The notes under the pieces are model-generated. The model worked only from the letters and a program-made list of their open reading frames with translations. It was not told where the DNA came from and searched no databases. Position numbers and translations under genes: made by a program. Positions 906 to 37,907 of a DNA stretch of 64,000 bases are shown here, one piece after another. Location of the stretch: NCBI GenBank assembly GCA_951812945.1, contig CATOTB010000002.1, positions 27,238-91,237 of the forward strand, in the 5' to 3' direction. Positions within the stretch are counted from its first letter, which is position 1, and each line of letters opens with the position of its first letter. The stretch comes from Candidatus Dadabacteria bacterium. GTDB lineage: Bacteria > Desulfobacterota_D > UBA1144 > Nemesobacterales > Nemesobacteraceae.

Positions 906-1322
906 CTACCATCTATACACCAACTTCATTCCGGTTGCTTCTTTCGCAATAGGTTCTAACCCAAAACCTTGCTCTAACCTTTTGTATGATAAGAGATTGG
1001 AACACACTTCATTATATTTATTTGCCGAACTACGCATATTCATACCCAAACCCATTAAACCGCCTCCAATAACCGCACTTGCAATTCCAACGGTTCTAGG
1101 ATTGTCATATATATCCTCATACGTATCGGGACTGCTTGCCATTACTATTCCACCGGCGGCATTTAGTCCTCCTATTATCATCCAGAACGTACCCCAACCA
1201 GTGCCTTTGGACGGTTCACCTTGGCATTGAGCTAGAGTCGGTTCTGCTGCTTCGACTTCTATTATTCCACTAAAACCAACAACAAAAACAAATACAACAA
1301 GTAAAGATAAAATCCTCCTCAT
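906..1322 (-). CDS. Small secreted/membrane protein with Gly-zipper-like segments (hypothetical)
   Basis: AAGGAGG lies 5 nt upstream of the ATG. N-terminal signal peptide MRRILSLLVVFVFVVGF...VEA-AEP. Gly-rich hydrophobic stretches GGLNAAGGIVMA and VIGGGLMGLGM. The gene sits in an AT-rich patch. Confidence 0.6.
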   Translation of the reverse strand: MRRILSLLVVFVFVVGFSGIIEVEAAEPTLAQCQGEPSKGTGWGTFWMIIGGLNAAGGIVMASSPDTYEDIYDNPRTVGIASAVIGGGLMGLGMNMRSSANKYNEVCSNLLSYKRLEQGFGLEPIAKEATGMKLVYRW

Positions 1323-1504
1323 AACGTCCTCCTTAAAATTTGCATTTCTCTATACAGGCCACCCATATCCCACCCCTGTTTCTGATTTCATATTCGTACA
1401 TATTGTTATTGCAGCTTAGTTTGAATCCGAACTTACTTGGATTGAAAAATGCAAGCTTTCTCATTGCAACACTCACACTATCACAACGCCATCCATTTGA
1501 ACGG

Positions 1505-1593
1505 ACTATCGAAACCAAATTTCCTATAACTCCATCCCTTGAACGGGTGTTTTATTCACGGAGACCCGACAGAGGGGGTTCCTTTCAACTAGT
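1505..1593 (-). promoter_or_regulatory. Conserved structured 5' leader RNA, copy 1 (unclassified cis-regulatory RNA candidate)
   Basis: About 65 nt are near-identical to 35260-35320 in the same orientation relative to the downstream gene. Closing stem is ACUA(G)UUGAAA / UUUCGAUAGU. The element starts a few nt downstream of the predicted -10. Confidence 0.45.
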
Positions 1594-1602
1594 TAGATTG
1601 GC

Positions 1603-1629
1603 ATTCTACCCCCCCCCTTTTTTTGTCAA
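1603..1629 (-). promoter_or_regulatory. Sigma70-like promoter TTGACA-15nt-TAGAAT with a homopolymeric A6G9 spacer
   Basis: Read on the minus strand: TTGACA (1624-1629), spacer AAAAAAGGGGGGGGG (1609-1623), TAGAAT (1603-1608). It lies directly upstream of the conserved leader. Confidence 0.5.
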
Positions 1630-33572: not shown

Positions 33573-33767
33573 TTTCTCTATGGAATCCGCATCTCCAACA
33601 CCGACGCTTTCCGCATTTATGTCAAGGTCTGGACTGTGGGAATAACCCCTGTATTCATGAGCGGACGCTTCGGCACCGAATAAGAAACTAACGCCAAGTG
33701 CAAAAACAAACTTAAGAAAATCCCGTGCATTTTAATCTTCACGCTAACTACCTCTCCAATAAATTTT

Positions 33768-33792
33768 GGGAATTACATACATAAATAAAAAA
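33768..33792. repeat. Left terminal inverted repeat GGGAATTACATACATAAATAAAAAA (TSD TAAATTTT at 33760-33767)
   Basis: Exact reverse complement of 36825-36849. Confidence 0.9.
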
Positions 33793-33860
33793 GGAGAATT
33801 AAAACTATATTATGGAATGGATTACATTTCGATTCACAACTAGAAAACTAGTATATATTA

Positions 33861-34127
33861 CTACTGTTGCTGTTTAAGACGATCTATTGCGTCATTTAAA
33901 ATCTTAATTATTGCATTAGGACCTTCTTTTACATAATCATCACTTGGTGTAAGAGCAATCATTGTATCTAAATAATCAAGTTCAGGATCATTATATTCAA
34001 TTACAATTGCGACTTTTATTTCTTTATTTTCAGATAGAGGTTTCACTATCACATTACTAACTGCAATTTGAATCTGCTCCGCTAATTTTCCCGCCTCATC
34101 ATTTGGTCCAGATGGCTTTTTACTCAT
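33861..34127 (-). CDS. Hypothetical 88-aa protein (transposon-borne)
   Basis: AGGAGGAG SD upstream of the ATG. No recognisable family. Oriented outward towards the cache-domain gene. Confidence 0.55.
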   Translation of the reverse strand: MSKKPSGPNDEAGKLAEQIQIAVSNVIVKPLSENKEIKVAIVIEYNDPELDYLDTMIALTPSDDYVKEGPNAIIKILNDAIDRLKQQQ

Positions 34128-34268
34128 TCGACTCCTCCTAAGTTTTTTTAGAATATATCACTCTAGCCAACCTGTTCTTTCTGTCAAACATGTAAACTAA
34201 ACCCCCTCTAACTATTGACTTTTTCGTATTATTAGGTATACTTAGTACCACAATAAACGAGAAGTCAA

Positions 34269-35198
34269 ATGAGTAAAACAACCATAAGTGAATATAGCTT
34301 TCTAGAGAGATTCAACACCGAGGAAAAGGCAGTTGAGTTCTTTGAGATGTTAAGATGGAAAGGGGGAACAACCTGCCCTAGTTGCGGAGGAACTGACACA
34401 TACCCTCACAAGACAAGAAAGTTCTATTACCATTGCCGATCCCCCAAGTGCCGTAACCAATTCTCTTGCAAGACTGGAACTGTTATGCAGTCAAGTAAGC
34501 TCCCTGTCAGAATGTGGCTTTATGCTATGTATAAAGTCAGTATAGCGAGGAAAGGCATAAGCAGTCTCCAGTTAGCAAAGCAACTCGGTATCACTCAAAA
34601 GACTTCTTGGTTTATGATTCAGAGGATTAAAGAGGCTTGCGGGAATGACACCGATACAATGCTTTCCGGCATAGTTGAGATTGACGAAACCTATGTGGGA
34701 GGACTTGAAAGAAACAAGCACGAATCAAAGAAACTCAATGAAGGGCGTGGGGTAGTGGGGAAAGCTCCTGTACTCGGCATAAGGGAAAGAGGGGGGAAGG
34801 TGAAGGTTAAAGTGGTAGAAGACAGGAGAGCAGAAACCCTTAAAAGAGAGATAGCCGGGATAGTTGAAAAAGGCTCTATAGTTTTCACTGATGATTGGAA
34901 GTCCTACAACTGCCTTATTGACTCTGATTATGAACACGCCACTGTAAACCATTCGGCAAAAGAGTTTGTACGCGGGATGGCCTCTACAAACGGAATTGAG
35001 AGTGTTTGGGCCGTGCTTAAAAGAAGTATCATAGGAACCTATCATCACGTAAGCCTGAAACATCTACATCGTTACGTAAATGAGGCTGCCTTCCGTCTTA
35101 ATGAAGGGAATGTCAAGAATAAGCTAATGGACCGGCTAGAGGCCCTTTGCTGCAAGATGGTAGGGGTAACTCTTCCCTATAGAGCATTAACCGCATAA
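34269..35198 (+). CDS. IS1595-family (ISXO2-like) DDE transposase with N-terminal Zn ribbon
   Basis: CPSCGG...YHCRSPKCRNQFS Zn ribbon. EIDETYVGG, FTDDWKSY and NGIESVWAVLKR motifs. TTGACT-16-TATACT promoter at 34215-34242. Confidence 0.9.
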   Translation: MSKTTISEYSFLERFNTEEKAVEFFEMLRWKGGTTCPSCGGTDTYPHKTRKFYYHCRSPKCRNQFSCKTGTVMQSSKLPVRMWLYAMYKVSIARKGISSLQLAKQLGITQKTSWFMIQRIKEACGNDTDTMLSGIVEIDETYVGGLERNKHESKKLNEGRGVVGKAPVLGIRERGGKVKVKVVEDRRAETLKREIAGIVEKGSIVFTDDWKSYNCLIDSDYEHATVNHSAKEFVRGMASTNGIESVWAVLKRSIIGTYHHVSLKHLHRYVNEAAFRLNEGNVKNKLMDRLEALCCKMVGVTLPYRALTA

Positions 35199-35214
35199 CA
35201 GAAGTTCCCTAGTT

Positions 35215-35243
35215 TTTACTTATCCCCCAATCCAAGTTATAAT
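35215..35243 (+). promoter_or_regulatory. Sigma70-like promoter TTTACT-17-TATAAT of the cargo cassette
   Basis: Hexamers at 35215-35220 and 35238-35243. The conserved leader begins about 8 nt downstream. Confidence 0.45.
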
Positions 35244-35251
35244 CTTCTCCG

Positions 35252-35350
35252 CTTATTAGTTGAAACGAACCCGCTATGTCGGGTCTCCGTGAATAAAATA
35301 CCCTTTCTAGGGGAATTAACGGTACGTCCAAACTCGTTTTGACTAATAAG
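35252..35350 (+). promoter_or_regulatory. Conserved structured 5' leader RNA, copy 2 (unclassified cis-regulatory RNA candidate)
   Basis: 15-bp closing stem CUUAUUAGUUGAAAC / GUUUUGACUAAUAAG with two G-U pairs, inner hairpin ACCCG-CUAUGU-CGGGU and CCC-N6-GGG. Homologous to 1505-1593. Confidence 0.5.
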
Positions 35351-35389
35351 CAAGGCCCGACACCCATATAAACCAAAGGGCCAAGGAAA

Positions 35390-36304
35390 ATGCTTGTTAT
35401 GAAAAGGATTTTGTCTTTATTGGCTGTACTGCTTTTTGTTGTTGGTTGTGGAGGGGGAAGCGGGAGTGATTCTAATATCCAATCTACACAAGAGCCCTCG
35501 TGTCCTGAAAATGTGGATGGATTTTCTTATCAGGATCAGAGTTCATGGCAATACGTAGAAGAGCTTTGTGATAACGGTTCCGTAGTTTCATATTCCTGTC
35601 AAAGGGAAAACGGTGGTATTGTCGCTTTTGGGGGTAACTTGGACGGGGTTTGTGAGTATCTACATGAACAGAAAACCAACCCTCAACCTATGGAGAAAAC
35701 AGGATTTGAAGCATGTCCAAGTCCAGATGAATTAACTAAGTTTGTTAATACTTTCGACCCTGTAAACAGATTCGATTCAGCACCCGTTTTAAGTTTTGCC
35801 GATAGTTCCACGGAATATCATAAACAGCTTGCTAGGGAGTCTGTATCGCTTCTAAATAGAGCTTTGCCGGATGAATATGACATTACTGAATCTGGTGTGG
35901 ATGTAGAAGGAAGCGATGGAGGAGCACTACAAGTTCCAGAAGGCGAAATTTACATACAGTTTTTCCCAGAACAACCAAATGTTCCGGTAGGACTCGCTGT
36001 AGGAAGATACATAAGGATTACAGGTGGTGCGGAACATGAGATTGGCAGGAGTTCTGCTTTACGTAAGTCCTATGTTCTTTTTATAGCACACGAGATTATG
36101 CATGTCCTAGGGTTTTCCGGGCACATAGACCTTCCAACTAATTCTATAATGATGGACGGGTTTTATATCATAGACCGTTTTGTAACTGATCGTGAATGGC
36201 CTAGAGAAGAGATACTTTCTGCTGTTGATGTATGGGGGATCAGATATTTCTACGAGGACGCAACAGGAGACCCGGAAGAATGGTTAGAAAACAGGTGTCA
36301 ATGA
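35390..36304 (+). CDS. Secreted lipoprotein with metzincin-type zinc-protease motif
   Basis: Lipobox FVVGC. HEIMHVLGFSGH (HExxHxxGxxH) followed by a possible Met-turn NSIMMDG. By homology to the 906-1322 gene the start may be the second ATG at 35399 (MKRILSLL). Confidence 0.7.
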   Translation: MLVMKRILSLLAVLLFVVGCGGGSGSDSNIQSTQEPSCPENVDGFSYQDQSSWQYVEELCDNGSVVSYSCQRENGGIVAFGGNLDGVCEYLHEQKTNPQPMEKTGFEACPSPDELTKFVNTFDPVNRFDSAPVLSFADSSTEYHKQLARESVSLLNRALPDEYDITESGVDVEGSDGGALQVPEGEIYIQFFPEQPNVPVGLAVGRYIRITGGAEHEIGRSSALRKSYVLFIAHEIMHVLGFSGHIDLPTNSIMMDGFYIIDRFVTDREWPREEILSAVDVWGIRYFYEDATGDPEEWLENRCQ

Positions 36305-36322
36305 TTAACAGGAGGAAACACA

Positions 36323-36457
36323 ATGGGAGTAGAAGTACTATTTTTGGTAATACCCTTAACTGCGTTGGGGGTTCTAGTAGGCTTTACTTGGTTAATAGTA
36401 AATGATTACAAGTCGGGGCATACAAGAAAAAGTGAAAAGTTTTTTAGTGATGATTAA
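36323..36457 (+). CDS. 44-aa single-TM peptide (hypothetical)
   Basis: AGGAGG lies 7 nt upstream. MGVEVLFLVIPLTALGVLVGFTWLIVNDYKSGHTRKSEKFFSDD. Starts 19 nt after the metzincin stop codon. Confidence 0.4.
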   Translation: MGVEVLFLVIPLTALGVLVGFTWLIVNDYKSGHTRKSEKFFSDD

Positions 36458-36472
36458 TAGGAGGAGAAAAAA

Positions 36473-36670
36473 ATGAAAAAAGAACTTACATGCTTGGATG
36501 GGTCAAAAATTGCTTTTCGTCTTCAAGAAGAACCTGATAGCGATGAGTTAATTCTTTATGTCGATGTTTATACAGAGGGTGGGTTAACATCGTCTCCAGT
36601 AGCCACCTCCGAAGCTGAAAAAGAGATTCGAGAGGCAATAATTTCGCTATTTCAAGAATATCCCCGTTAG
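36473..36670 (+). CDS. 65-aa acidic hypothetical protein
   Basis: AGGAGGAG SD upstream. A fully antisense ORF (36486-36710) also has an SD, so the coding strand is uncertain. Confidence 0.4.
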   Translation: MKKELTCLDGSKIAFRLQEEPDSDELILYVDVYTEGGLTSSPVATSEAEKEIREAIISLFQEYPR

Positions 36671-36824
36671 TTTTTTTCGGTTCATTAGATAAAGAAGAAT
36701 TTTTAGTCATTTTTTGCTCCTGTTATAATATGTTATGACAATTCTTGAGGGGTTAGTAAGAGGCTGGGTTTTCAATTGCCCCCAACCTCCTAATGGCGTA
36801 TTTCCTCCGCCAGCTAATCTCTCA

Positions 36825-36849
36825 TTTTTTATTTATGTATGTAATTCCC
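36825..36849. repeat. Right terminal inverted repeat (TSD TAAATTTT at 36850-36857)
   Basis: Exact reverse complement of 33768-33792. Confidence 0.9.
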
Positions 36850-36978
36850 TAAATTTTTTACCGCACTTAAATAACAAATGACGGCCAACAGCCACCTTAT
36901 TAAATCAAAGCTGAAGTTGAAATGCAATAAATACATAGGGGTTTCAAAAAGAGCTATTTATGGCTTAGAATAAGCCTC

Positions 36979-37833: not shown

Positions 37834-37907
37834 GTCCCCGTAGCTCAGTTGGATAGAGCGCAGGATTCCTAATCCTGAGGCCGCAGGTTCGAATCCTGCC
37901 GGGGACG
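37834..37907 (+). tRNA. tRNA-Arg (anticodon CCU)
   Basis: Manual cloverleaf: acceptor GTCCCCG/CGGGGAC, anticodon arm CAGGA-TTCCTAA-TCCTG, T-arm GCAGG-TTCGAAT-CCTGC. CCA is not encoded. Confidence 0.9.

Follow-up and report, generated by a model that had tools for sequence, protein, structure and literature searches.

Why do two genes for unrelated exported proteins, lying 34 kb apart in the genome of a Candidatus Dadabacteria bacterium, open with the same leader and the same signal-peptide codons? Both genes are found in a stretch of 64,000 nucleotides (nt) of contig CATOTB010000002.1 (hereafter, the window). One copy of the repeat (copy A) is associated with a gene for a 138-amino-acid (aa) protein on the minus strand, and the other (copy B) with a gene for a 304-aa lipoprotein on the plus strand (Table 1). 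A sequence-only reading had described the repeat as a portable expression-and-export adaptor with exchanged cargo, which supplies both genes with a shared promoter and with a leader whose closing stem was re-formed in copy A by a compensatory change. We found that the repeat is a real feature that was partly misdescribed. Copy B is an intact structured RNA within an IS1595-family transposon, and it very probably belongs to a divergent, non-proteobacterial, transposon-borne subfamily of the small RNA (sRNA) family sRNA-Xcc1. Judging from alignments, copy A is a dead relic of a related operon. Overall, the leader is probably best explained as a mobile, self-regulating leader of IS1595 passenger cargo.

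The similarity of the two copies is confined to their 5′ parts. The 22-mer TGTCGGGTCTCCGTGAATAAAA occurs exactly twice in the window (1550-1571 on the minus strand and 35277-35298 on the plus strand), and none is expected in shuffled sequences. In blastn comparisons, copy B matches copy A over 56 nt with 89% identity (35257-35312 versus 1591-1536), and a second collinear block of 52 nt with 82.7% identity (35396-35447 versus 1325-1274; E about 0.001-0.005) covers the signal-peptide codons. When each region was compared with the whole window by blastn, the partner copy was the sole match, and a scan of the window with a covariance model of the RNA (R1, described below; filters off) recovered copies A and B only. 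The mature parts of the 138-aa and 304-aa proteins gave only self-hits in tblastn searches. The shared repeat and the homologous first codons followed by unrelated proteins, as proposed in the sequence-only reading, are therefore upheld by the 22-mer, the two blastn blocks, and the tblastn result. The proposed shared promoter is not, since homology begins only at about 35236/35257 and the region upstream of copy A differs (TTGACA-15-TAGAAT).

When compared with Rfam, copy B matched a single family, sRNA-Xcc1 (RF02221), end to end at 31.1 bits (E = 0.001), which is below the gathering cut-off of 53 bits. Related loci L027, L040, L048, and L051 also score below this cut-off (31-35 bits), and proteobacterial loci with the same core pattern score 57-73 bits. 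This core pattern, GTGAATAAAANACCC..GGGGAAT, was used to retrieve loci of the family and recovered 18 genome loci, eight of which pass the RF02221 cut-off, and 8 viral contigs. In an alignment of 17 members that includes copy B, a consensus of P1, P2, and a short P3 is recognizable, with compensatory double changes in 12 of 19 pairs. The model R1 was built from this alignment; copy B, which is in its seed, scores 66 bits with R1 and aligns end to end with both models. Its P1, the P2 internal loop, and the tail are present. Only three weak pairs are possible in its P3 hairpin, and the region pairs instead with an upstream box (seqA). Across the family, P1 varies freely (UGUCGGGUCU/AGGCCCGACA, UGGCGGGAG/CUCCCGCCA, UGUCGAGUG/CGCUCGACA), and the P2 loop (GUGAAUAAAAYACCC / GGGGAAU) shows no variation from Proteobacteria through to Thermodesulfobacteriota. 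The P1 stem is similar to the acceptor stem of a tRNA, and N-CCA often comes after it; a CCA lies at most 5 nt after P1 in 16 of 26 distinct family members. Matches to the pattern in Kitasatospora, Thermoplasmata, and Gemmatimonadaceae were rejected as chance. A metagenome scan for an exact 21-mer gave 0 matches, and a looser metagenome pattern gave two loci, neither with a match to the model.

The copy B subfamily shares with sRNA-Xcc1 the three-helix plan, the invariant P2 internal loop, a P1 that closes the molecule, and a location on mobile DNA just upstream of a gene that the RNA may regulate. In Xanthomonas, sRNA-Xcc1 is a discrete, stable 88-nt RNA (PMC2996969). On integron cassettes it lies upstream of symE, and its transcription there does not depend on the cassette promoter (10.1101/2025.06.18.660453). 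APSE phages have it ahead of an ORF6N protein (10.1101/2020.03.17.996009), and a Xylella island has tandem copies of it (PMC12189769). This literature names no confirmed target or mechanism. The subfamily differs from sRNA-Xcc1 in its lower scores against RF02221 (31-35 bits) and in its occurrence in Thermodesulfobacteriota-type metagenome-assembled genomes (MAGs) rather than in Proteobacteria. It also differs in the replacement of essentially all of P3: its seqA lies 8 nt from P1 and forms a 15-18-bp helix with the P3 region, whereas the corresponding classical site lies 70-110 nt upstream, beyond a hairpin and a U-run. Its cargo consists of exported lipoproteins, not of symE, anti-repressors, or helix-turn-helix (HTH) proteins, and its vehicle is an IS1595 transposon.

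The most regular property of the subfamily is the pairing of seqA, a 15-18-nt box a few nt upstream of P1, with seqB, which occupies the position of P3. The two boxes match without a single mismatch: in 11 distinct sequences, pairing holds in 187 of 187 cells of the helix, and as many as five pair types occur at one position. Many of the pairs are G.U (for example, position 10 is U.G in 8 of the 11 sequences and position 11 is G.U in five). Because seqB is only 1-2 nt from the P1 3′ arm, the seqA:seqB helix and P1 are mutually exclusive. Additionally, in the minimum-energy fold the conserved linker (ACCCG) forms a hairpin with the 5′ arm of P1 (ACCCG:CGGGU). P1 is nevertheless kept by compensatory changes in L058 (GCCGGG/CCCGGC). 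Together, the covariation of seqA with seqB and the maintenance of P1 suggest that both folds are selected. With seqA:seqB formed, the most stable fold of the full leader reaches -36.8 kcal/mol (z = -3.8), whereas an RNA that starts at P1 adopts the family fold (-25.0 kcal/mol). The probability that seqB is unpaired changes from 0.008 in the full leader to 0.63 in the RNA starting at P1.

A third site, seqC, lies in the translation-initiation region of the cargo gene, resembles seqA, and is complementary to seqB. Predicted seqB:seqC duplexes in the subfamily have energies between -15 and -22 kcal/mol and are significant against shuffled targets in 6 of 9 loci (p ≤ 0.033), and the seqB targets span about -22 to +29 around the AUG. 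Often, seqC consists of two boxes that flank or cover the AUG, as in L027 (AGCUACU-AUG-AAAAGGAUU). Among 15 members of the whole family, seqB pairs best with its cognate upstream site in ten (versus 14 non-cognate sites), and its cognate downstream site ranks first in five and first or second in seven; the downstream targets lie over the Shine-Dalgarno sequence or the start codon. At classical proteobacterial loci, it is the P3 loop and the following single strand that match both a site 70-110 nt upstream and the downstream start region, and genes downstream of classical members encode KilA-N, Rha, Bro-N, and HTH/CI-type regulators. Nine classical loci (L004, L005, L006, L007, L014, L015, L017, L020, and L022) also carry, between the upstream box and the RNA, a conserved hairpin followed by UUUUUGUGCC, which looks like a terminator or a second small RNA with a target mimic and has no Rfam match. 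We also considered the start region of the transposase as a target of seqB, by analogy with IS10 RNA-OUT, and rejected it, as five of six loci gave no signal (p = 0.14-0.40).

The vehicle of copy B is a 3,082-bp element. Its terminal inverted repeats (33768-33797 and 36820-36849) have the core GGGAATTACATACATAAATAAAAA, which occurs exactly twice in the window, and the element is flanked by an 8-bp target-site duplication, TAAATTTT (33760-33767 and 36850-36857); inverted repeats with an 8-bp direct repeat are the signature of a transposition event. An inverted repeat of 40 nt (93% complementary) bounds 33758-36859, and from a reading of the ends the element proper runs GGGAATTAC...GTAATTCCC (33768-36849). 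Its transposase has Pfam matches to DDE_Tnp_IS1595 (PF12762; E = 4.8e-46) and to an N-terminal zinc ribbon, Zn_ribbon_IS1595 (PF12760; E = 3.8e-10). The RNA of copy B lies 31 nt before the open reading frame (ORF) of the cargo, within this insertion sequence (IS) and its target duplication, and is thus both mobile and immediately upstream of a gene. A promoter-like site lies 8 nt before the stem, and its predicted start is a few nt before seqA; a similar TTTTTACTTAT...GTTATA(A/C)T block is found upstream of L027, L039, and L040.

To place the element among its relatives, we drew on loci that were found via a transposase search, a looser RNA pattern, and homologs of the cargo. The transposase is 82-89% identical to copies in a Thermodesulfobacteriota MAG (OZ252213.1). 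Three proteins of the window have no exact counterpart on record, and the nearest relatives of its IS and its RNA are in Thermodesulfobacteriota MAGs. The inverted repeat GGGAATTACATACATAAATAAAAA also bounds the elements of L027, L056, and L057, whereas L048 belongs to another element, of 4.7 kb, that has 55-nt repeats of its own. An IS1595-type transposase adjoins the RNA-cargo unit in copy B, L027, L039, L040, L056, and L057, and lies farther off in L002, L048, and L058. The RNA is absent from at least 13 related IS1595 loci of the unclassified MAG OZ251221.1 (L028-L038 and L043 among them), whose transposases are 67% (12 loci) or 72% (one locus) identical to that in the window. A sister IS lineage thus lacks the RNA. 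Accordingly, the RNA-cargo unit travels as a passenger with a single IS1595 lineage and does not characterize the IS family as a whole. In its transposase type, inverted repeats, 8-bp duplication, and extra genes between the ends, the element resembles IS1595-family insertion sequences with passenger genes (ISfinder classification). It differs from them in its RNA-headed passenger arrangement, which recurs in at least six elements here. To our knowledge, no structured regulatory RNA has been described at the head of a passenger operon of an IS1595 element, although the literature was not searched specifically for one.

Several other features of these elements were observed. Compared with five related elements (L027, L039, L040, L056, and L057), in which the transposase is divergent from the RNA-cargo unit, the window has its 1-kb transposase segment (34200-35199) in inverted orientation, and a 20-nt inverted repeat (34118-34137 / 34259-34278) lies at one end of the inverted segment. 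Small ORFs within the IS encode 88 aa (33861-34127, minus strand), 44 aa (36323-36457, plus strand), and 65 aa (36473-36670, plus strand), and none has a Pfam match; ORFs of about 44 aa and of 61-67 aa also follow the cargo in L056 and L057 and seem to be conserved passengers. tRNA genes are located 0.1-1 kb from several RNA-cargo units or IS ends (L002, 2988-3086; L051, 1095-1270; the window, 37834-37907), and insertion may occur near tRNA genes. Between the cargo and the tRNAs of L051 there is a weak rdlD-like match (32 bits, below the cut-off).

The sequence-only reading had proposed a search for further copies, and such copies exist: 12 distinct intact members of the subfamily were found (copy B, L001, L002, L027, L039, L040, L047, L048, L051, L056, L057, and L058), with about six unrelated types of cargo. 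Named members come from Thermodesulfobacteriota MAGs, including five distinct copies in OZ252213.1, and others come from metagenomes; most are next to IS1595 transposases. Each member consists of a promoter-like site, the RNA, a linker of 23-36 nt, and an ORF that opens with a signal peptide. The cargo is a metzincin-like lipoprotein family in copy B, L027, L051, L056, and L057, as well as in L058 (a variant) and L039 (truncated). In the remaining members it is a 154-aa lipoprotein (L040), an ankyrin-repeat protein identified with Pfam (L048), a 180-aa lipoprotein (L047), a 98-aa Cys-rich protein (L002), or possibly a 39-aa peptide (L001).

Specifically, a block that comprises the -10 box, the RNA, the ribosome-binding region, the lipoprotein signal peptide, and the lipobox is 73-84% identical to copy B in seven of nine loci (L002, L027, L039, L040, L051, L056, and L057), whatever the cargo. 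Of the other two, L048 has only the RNA conserved, and in L058 the blastn match extends from the RNA into the cargo. Where the next 150 nt are at the background of about 50%, identity between the signal-peptide codons of different loci is 70-88%. Conversely, L047, L048, and L001 have the RNA with unrelated signal peptides, and some homologs of the 138-aa protein bear the same type of signal peptide without the RNA upstream. The RNA and the signal peptide are therefore separable, recombining pieces, and the similarity of the signal peptides stems from a lineage-specific 5′ block that moves from gene to gene by recombination. The portable adaptor of the sequence-only reading thus stands insofar as related genomes carry a conserved, IS1595-linked 5′ block before different exported proteins; its leader, however, is not a new adaptor but a divergent member of a known family of mobile RNAs. 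In blastn searches of plasmid and phage collections, the block had no match.

A comparable organization is known from the Borrelia erp/mlp genes, with their "upstream homology box", and from the Mycoplasma vlp/vsp genes: in both, a conserved 5′ region and lipoprotein signal peptide precede variable mature parts. In those host-associated bacteria, the shared block is maintained by recombination among paralogs and serves antigenic variation. The block described here differs in being transposon-borne and in occurring in environmental bacteria, and we know of no structured antisense RNA in the leaders of the Borrelia and Mycoplasma genes.

The history of copy A can be read from its alignment with L002. 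On a 6.5-kb contig, L002 combines an RNA that hardly differs from copy B, a ribosome-binding region and start (ggccaaggaaaatgcttgttatgaaaaggatt) that are the same as those of copy B, a Cys-rich ORF, and a lipoprotein gene. (The contig was binned as Cyclobacteriaceae of the Bacteroidota and also has IS3-, IS4-, and IS1595-type transposases; it was either mis-binned or acquired by recent transfer between phyla.) Copy A and L002 are nearly identical through ...GUGAAUAAAACACCC, after which there is a gap of about 190 nt. Homology resumes at about codon 40 of the small ORF and runs to its stop and the following AAGGAGG, and residues 42-101 of the L002 ORF match the remnant in the window with 44% identity (tblastn; E = 5e-12). 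Relative to L002, copy A lacks the segment from the P2 loop to codon ~40; it retains a seqA-like box (1596-1579), the 5′ arm of P1 (1571-1562), and, from P2, the loop and the 5′ side, and the remainder of the RNA is deleted. A deletion of about 190 nt removed the 3′ half of the RNA together with the 5′ half of the small ORF, and copy A is thus a dead relic of an L002-type operon composed of the RNA, the small ORF, and a second gene. The 138-aa gene, which had been taken to be driven directly by the leader, is actually the second gene, after the relic ORF.

The proposed compensatory change in copy A fails on the same alignment. Its supposed 3′ arm, UUUCGAUAGU (1514-1505), aligns with L002 coding sequence (GTCCAGATAAT) and not with the 3′ arm of copy B; as the two arms are not homologous, they carry no argument about compensatory pairs. 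The stem is marginal: as previously drawn it has -6.2 kcal/mol, and the most stable duplex between the arm and the following 70 nt has -10.5 kcal/mol (p = 0.045 versus shuffles), compared to -23.6 kcal/mol (p < 0.001) for the same type of closing-stem duplex in copy B. The whole fold of copy A is no better than shuffles (z = +0.37), whereas intact RNAs have z of -3.8 to -4.1 (copy B, -3.8). Under R1, copy A scores 21.6 bits, with P1 broken and a segment missing, and against Rfam at E ≤ 10 it gives only noise and no sRNA-Xcc1 match. Its promoter-like site is not homologous to that of copy B, and a promoter scan for 16-18-nt spacing found none upstream of copy A, whose 15-nt spacer is too short. 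This spacer is an A6G9 run (1609-1623, minus strand) in which a length change of 1-2 nt would yield an optimal promoter; the run could be a slippage-prone switch or a long-read homopolymer error, and its length is equal in locus L059. The related strain with L059 has the same relic, including the A6G9 tract, and its 138-aa protein is 96% identical; copy A is therefore not an assembly error. Action of the copy B RNA in trans on the 138-aa gene was considered and rejected, as the duplex (-12.7 kcal/mol) is at background.

From these patterns of complementarity and folding, we infer the transcription start, the processing, and an antisense repression with its direction and its action in cis or in trans, as follows. 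A predicted sigma-70-type promoter would start transcription just before the structured RNA of ~115 nt. In the subfamily, no more than 23-36 nt (31 nt in copy B) separate the RNA and the start codon of the signal-peptide protein, and the RNA and the cargo must therefore share one transcript. In the full leader, the 18-bp seqA:seqB helix and the ACCCG:CGGGU hairpin would mask seqB and break P1. If the 5′ part were removed or displaced, the P1/P2 fold would form and leave seqB single-stranded, and the freed seqB may then pair with seqC and limit translation of the cargo, in cis or in trans. The RNA might be cut from the longer transcript by RNase P, as in c4. As seqA, seqB, and seqC differ in concert from copy to copy, every copy would have a specificity of its own. 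A c4-like, self-targeting regulator of the cargo is thus a mechanism that we advance tentatively.

The comparison is with the c4 RNA of phages P1 and P7 (RF01695) and the CI RNA of P4, which works similarly to c4 through seqA/seqB/seqC sites; the target of c4 is the icd-ant mRNA. Details of the upstream a1b1 copy of c4 are reportedly given by Citron & Schuster 1990, and Hartmann et al. 1995 is said to provide background on c4 RNA to which the likeness refers. Like these RNAs, the leader is a small structured RNA co-transcribed upstream of its presumed target, with specificity boxes that are complementary to an upstream copy and to a downstream ribosome-binding region, and boxes and targets vary together; like c4, it has an acceptor-like stem with a CCA-type tail. 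The location of sRNA-Xcc1 family members before KilA-N, Rha, Bro-N, and HTH genes also resembles that of c4 before ant. The c4 RNA folds into three stem-loops, RNase P releases it by cleavage at the base of P1, and its a′/b′ loops pair with the mRNA and occlude the ribosome-binding site (PMC5320573); a c4-a1b1 upstream motif has been listed (PMC2864571). The leader differs from c4 and CI RNAs in having no sequence or covariance-model match to C4, and in its targets, which are secreted proteins on an IS and not a phage anti-repressor operon.

Several observations weigh against this antisense mechanism. The seqB:seqC duplex of copy B itself (-16.9 kcal/mol) has p = 0.08 versus shuffles, and the duplexes of L048 and L051 are not significant. 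In the full leader, the 18-bp seqA:seqB helix outcompetes P1, so a substrate of the RNase P type would be hard to form. Neither C4 nor isrK of Rfam matched copy B at E ≤ 10 or eight classical loci at E ≤ 1, and the link to c4 is thus an analogy and not a homology. Pure antisense action leaves the invariance of the P2 loop across phyla unexplained, and the loop could be a site for a ligand or a protein. Finally, a secreted lipoprotein has no evident need for such control.

The invariant loop is central to the most serious alternative, that of a riboswitch-like or protein-responsive leader that acts in cis, which we regard as unlikely. The P1/P2 core would be its sensor and seqA, seqB, and seqC its expression platform: stabilization of P1 would make seqB available to block the start codon, or have the opposite effect, and neither a trans-acting sRNA nor RNase P would be involved. 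Such a leader would account for a P2 loop shared from Proteobacteria to Thermodesulfobacteriota, for the conservation of two mutually exclusive folds (seqA:seqB with the anti-P1 hairpin versus P1), and for the location of the RNA 23-36 nt from the start codon on the same transcript. However, the downstream genes (anti-repressors, HTH regulators, symE, and lipoproteins) have no metabolic theme in common, unlike those usually found behind a metabolite sensor; in Xanthomonas, the RNA builds up as a discrete species of 88 nt (PMC2996969); and an upstream target mimic and a CCA tail are typical marks of RNAs of the c4 type.

Plain paralogy is less probable still. Under this explanation, secreted-protein genes were duplicated by IS activity, their mature parts evolved fast, the leader is inherited baggage without a regulatory role, and the two copies in the window are old duplicates. 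That most of the cargo behind the block is of one metzincin-like family, that the same type of signal peptide occurs on homologs of the 138-aa protein without an RNA upstream, and that copy A is decaying all conform to it. Yet the perfect, covarying seqA:seqB helix and the maintained P1 show selection on the RNA structure, the 154-aa, ankyrin-repeat, 180-aa, and 98-aa cargo proteins have no detectable similarity to the metzincin-like family, and the core RNA is common to distant phyla.

It is very improbable that the inverted repeat functions as DNA, as a recombination site (integron attC-like or transposon-associated) for the exchange of cargo, even though sRNA-Xcc1 was first described in integron cassettes (10.1101/2025.06.18.660453) and cargo does vary downstream of the conserved block. 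The many G.U pairs of the helix would be A.C mismatches on the other strand, and the helix therefore holds only on the sense strand, which, together with the promoter-like site 8 nt upstream, argues for RNA and not DNA. Moreover, the cargo breakpoint follows the signal peptide and is not at the repeat, and the vehicle is an IS that has inverted repeats of its own and a target duplication. Chance, or an assembly artifact that duplicated one locus, is refuted by the expectation of 0 matches to the 22-mer, by the differences between the copies in flanks and state, and by independent counterparts in other assemblies (L059 for copy A; L027, L056, and L057 for copy B).

Table 1. Positions of the features of copies A and B, of the transposon, and of the associated genes in the window.
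Feature	Position	Strand	Basis or remark
138-aa secreted or membrane protein, second gene after relic	906..1322	-	Signal-peptide codons match shared block
Small Cys-rich secreted protein remnant, C-terminal ~60 codons	1333..1533	-	Intact in L002 (98-101 aa)
Copy A, RNA relic	1536..1596	-	Alignment with L002
Promoter-like TTGACA (1629-1624) and TAGAAT (1608-1603), 15-nt A6G9 spacer	1603..1629	-	Read from sequence
IS1595-family transposon, 3,082 bp, bears copy B	33768..36849	+	Terminal inverted repeats and target-site duplication
IS1595-type transposase, 309 aa	34269..35198	+	Pfam DDE_Tnp_IS1595, Zn_ribbon_IS1595
Promoter-like site of copy B, TTTACT-17-TATAAT	35215..35243	+	Promoter scan; function inferred
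Conserved block, -10 box to lipobox/GGG(SG)	35236..35458 (end ~35437-35482 by locus)	+	blastn versus relatives
Copy B, whole structured RNA, intact	35251-35367	+	Fold and covariance models
seqA, 5′ box GCUUAUUAGUUGAAACGA	35251..35268	+	Pairs with seqB over 18 bp
Conserved linker AACCCGCUA	35269-35276	+	Can pair with P1 5′ arm as anti-P1 hairpin
sRNA-Xcc1-like core	35277..35367	+	Rfam RF02221, model R1
P1 of copy B	35277-35286 with 35353-35362	+	
P2 of copy B	35287-35290 with 35319-35322; 35301-35304 with 35309-35312	+	Around GUGAAUAAAAYACCC / GGGGAAU loop
seqB, specificity box UCGUUUUGACUAAUAAGC inside RNA	35334..35351	+	Complementary to seqA; less well to start-codon region
Tail CCCAU	35363-35367	+	
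seqC, translation-initiation region AUGCUUGUUAUGAAAAGGAUUUUGU	35390..35414	+	Two in-frame AUGs (35390, 35399); resembles seqA, complementary to seqB
304-aa lipoprotein, lipobox VVGC, HEIMHVLGFSGH	35390..36304	+	ORF

The proteins associated with the two copies have different affinities. The 304-aa cargo belongs to a very narrow family, with 16 relatives among 5.8 billion proteins, and has neither a Pfam match nor a PDB sequence match. Residues H234, E235, H238, G241, and H245, which constitute the HExxHxxGxxH zinc-site motif, are invariant in 14 relatives. In a Foldseek search with a low-confidence structural model (predicted local distance difference test score, 59), the top matches were catalytic domains similar to those of matrix metalloproteinases (MMPs), namely karilysin and MMP-12 (E = 0.011-0.06; prob 0.97; target-relative TM-score 0.52), and a metzincin-like assignment of the modeled protein is plausible. 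A Cys-rich N-terminal domain (CPENVDGFSYQDQSSWQYVEELCDNGSVVSYSCQRENGGIVAF; 35480-35680, residues ~35-95) is common to proteins P0015 and P0016, whose protease-like domain (HELFHALGF) is only about 40% identical to that of the cargo, and closer relatives of the protease domain have other N-terminal domains. These comparisons point to possible domain shuffling within the family.

For the 138-aa protein, 33 homologs were found. Its own signal-peptide codons are 77% identical to those of copy B over 57 nt. Across the family, a conserved mature part (AEPSLAQCQGEPSKGTGWG...) is combined with at least three unrelated types of signal peptide (proteins P0017-P0045; loci L059-L062), which suggests that signal peptides may be swapped here as well. 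The homologs examined for an RNA upstream (L060-L062) had none. Genes of the family adjoin toxin-antitoxin and phage-defense genes (HipA, AbiEii, BrxC, GmrSD, and ParE). Pfam searches with the 138-aa protein and the small ORFs gave no match, and the "Gly-zipper" label that the sequence-only reading had attached to the protein was not confirmed.

The copy B leader extends the sRNA-Xcc1 family by a variant in another phylum, a new vehicle (IS1595), and a new class of cargo (exported proteins). Because members of this subfamily score below the Rfam cut-off, they are missed by current standard annotation. A broader proposal, which we consider rather doubtful, is that IS1595 transposons carry a promoter, a c4-like antisense RNA with private, co-varying boxes (seqA/seqB/seqC), and a lipoprotein signal peptide as a self-contained unit, behind which unrelated genes would be captured by recombination; the exported protein of each transposon copy would be dose-limited by its own RNA as copies of the transposon rise. 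The whole sRNA-Xcc1 family, in phages, integron cassettes, and islands alike, would then be c4/CI-type "immunity" RNAs of the gene downstream and not trans-acting virulence sRNAs. For 15 years sRNA-Xcc1 has been listed as a mobile small RNA, and the three-site complementarity provides a testable hypothesis for the family, whether its members are in phages, on integron cassettes, or in genomic islands. In the lineage described here, the regulatory RNA travels with a recombining signal-peptide block, which may provide a transposon route by which surface or secreted functions are acquired under built-in dosage control.

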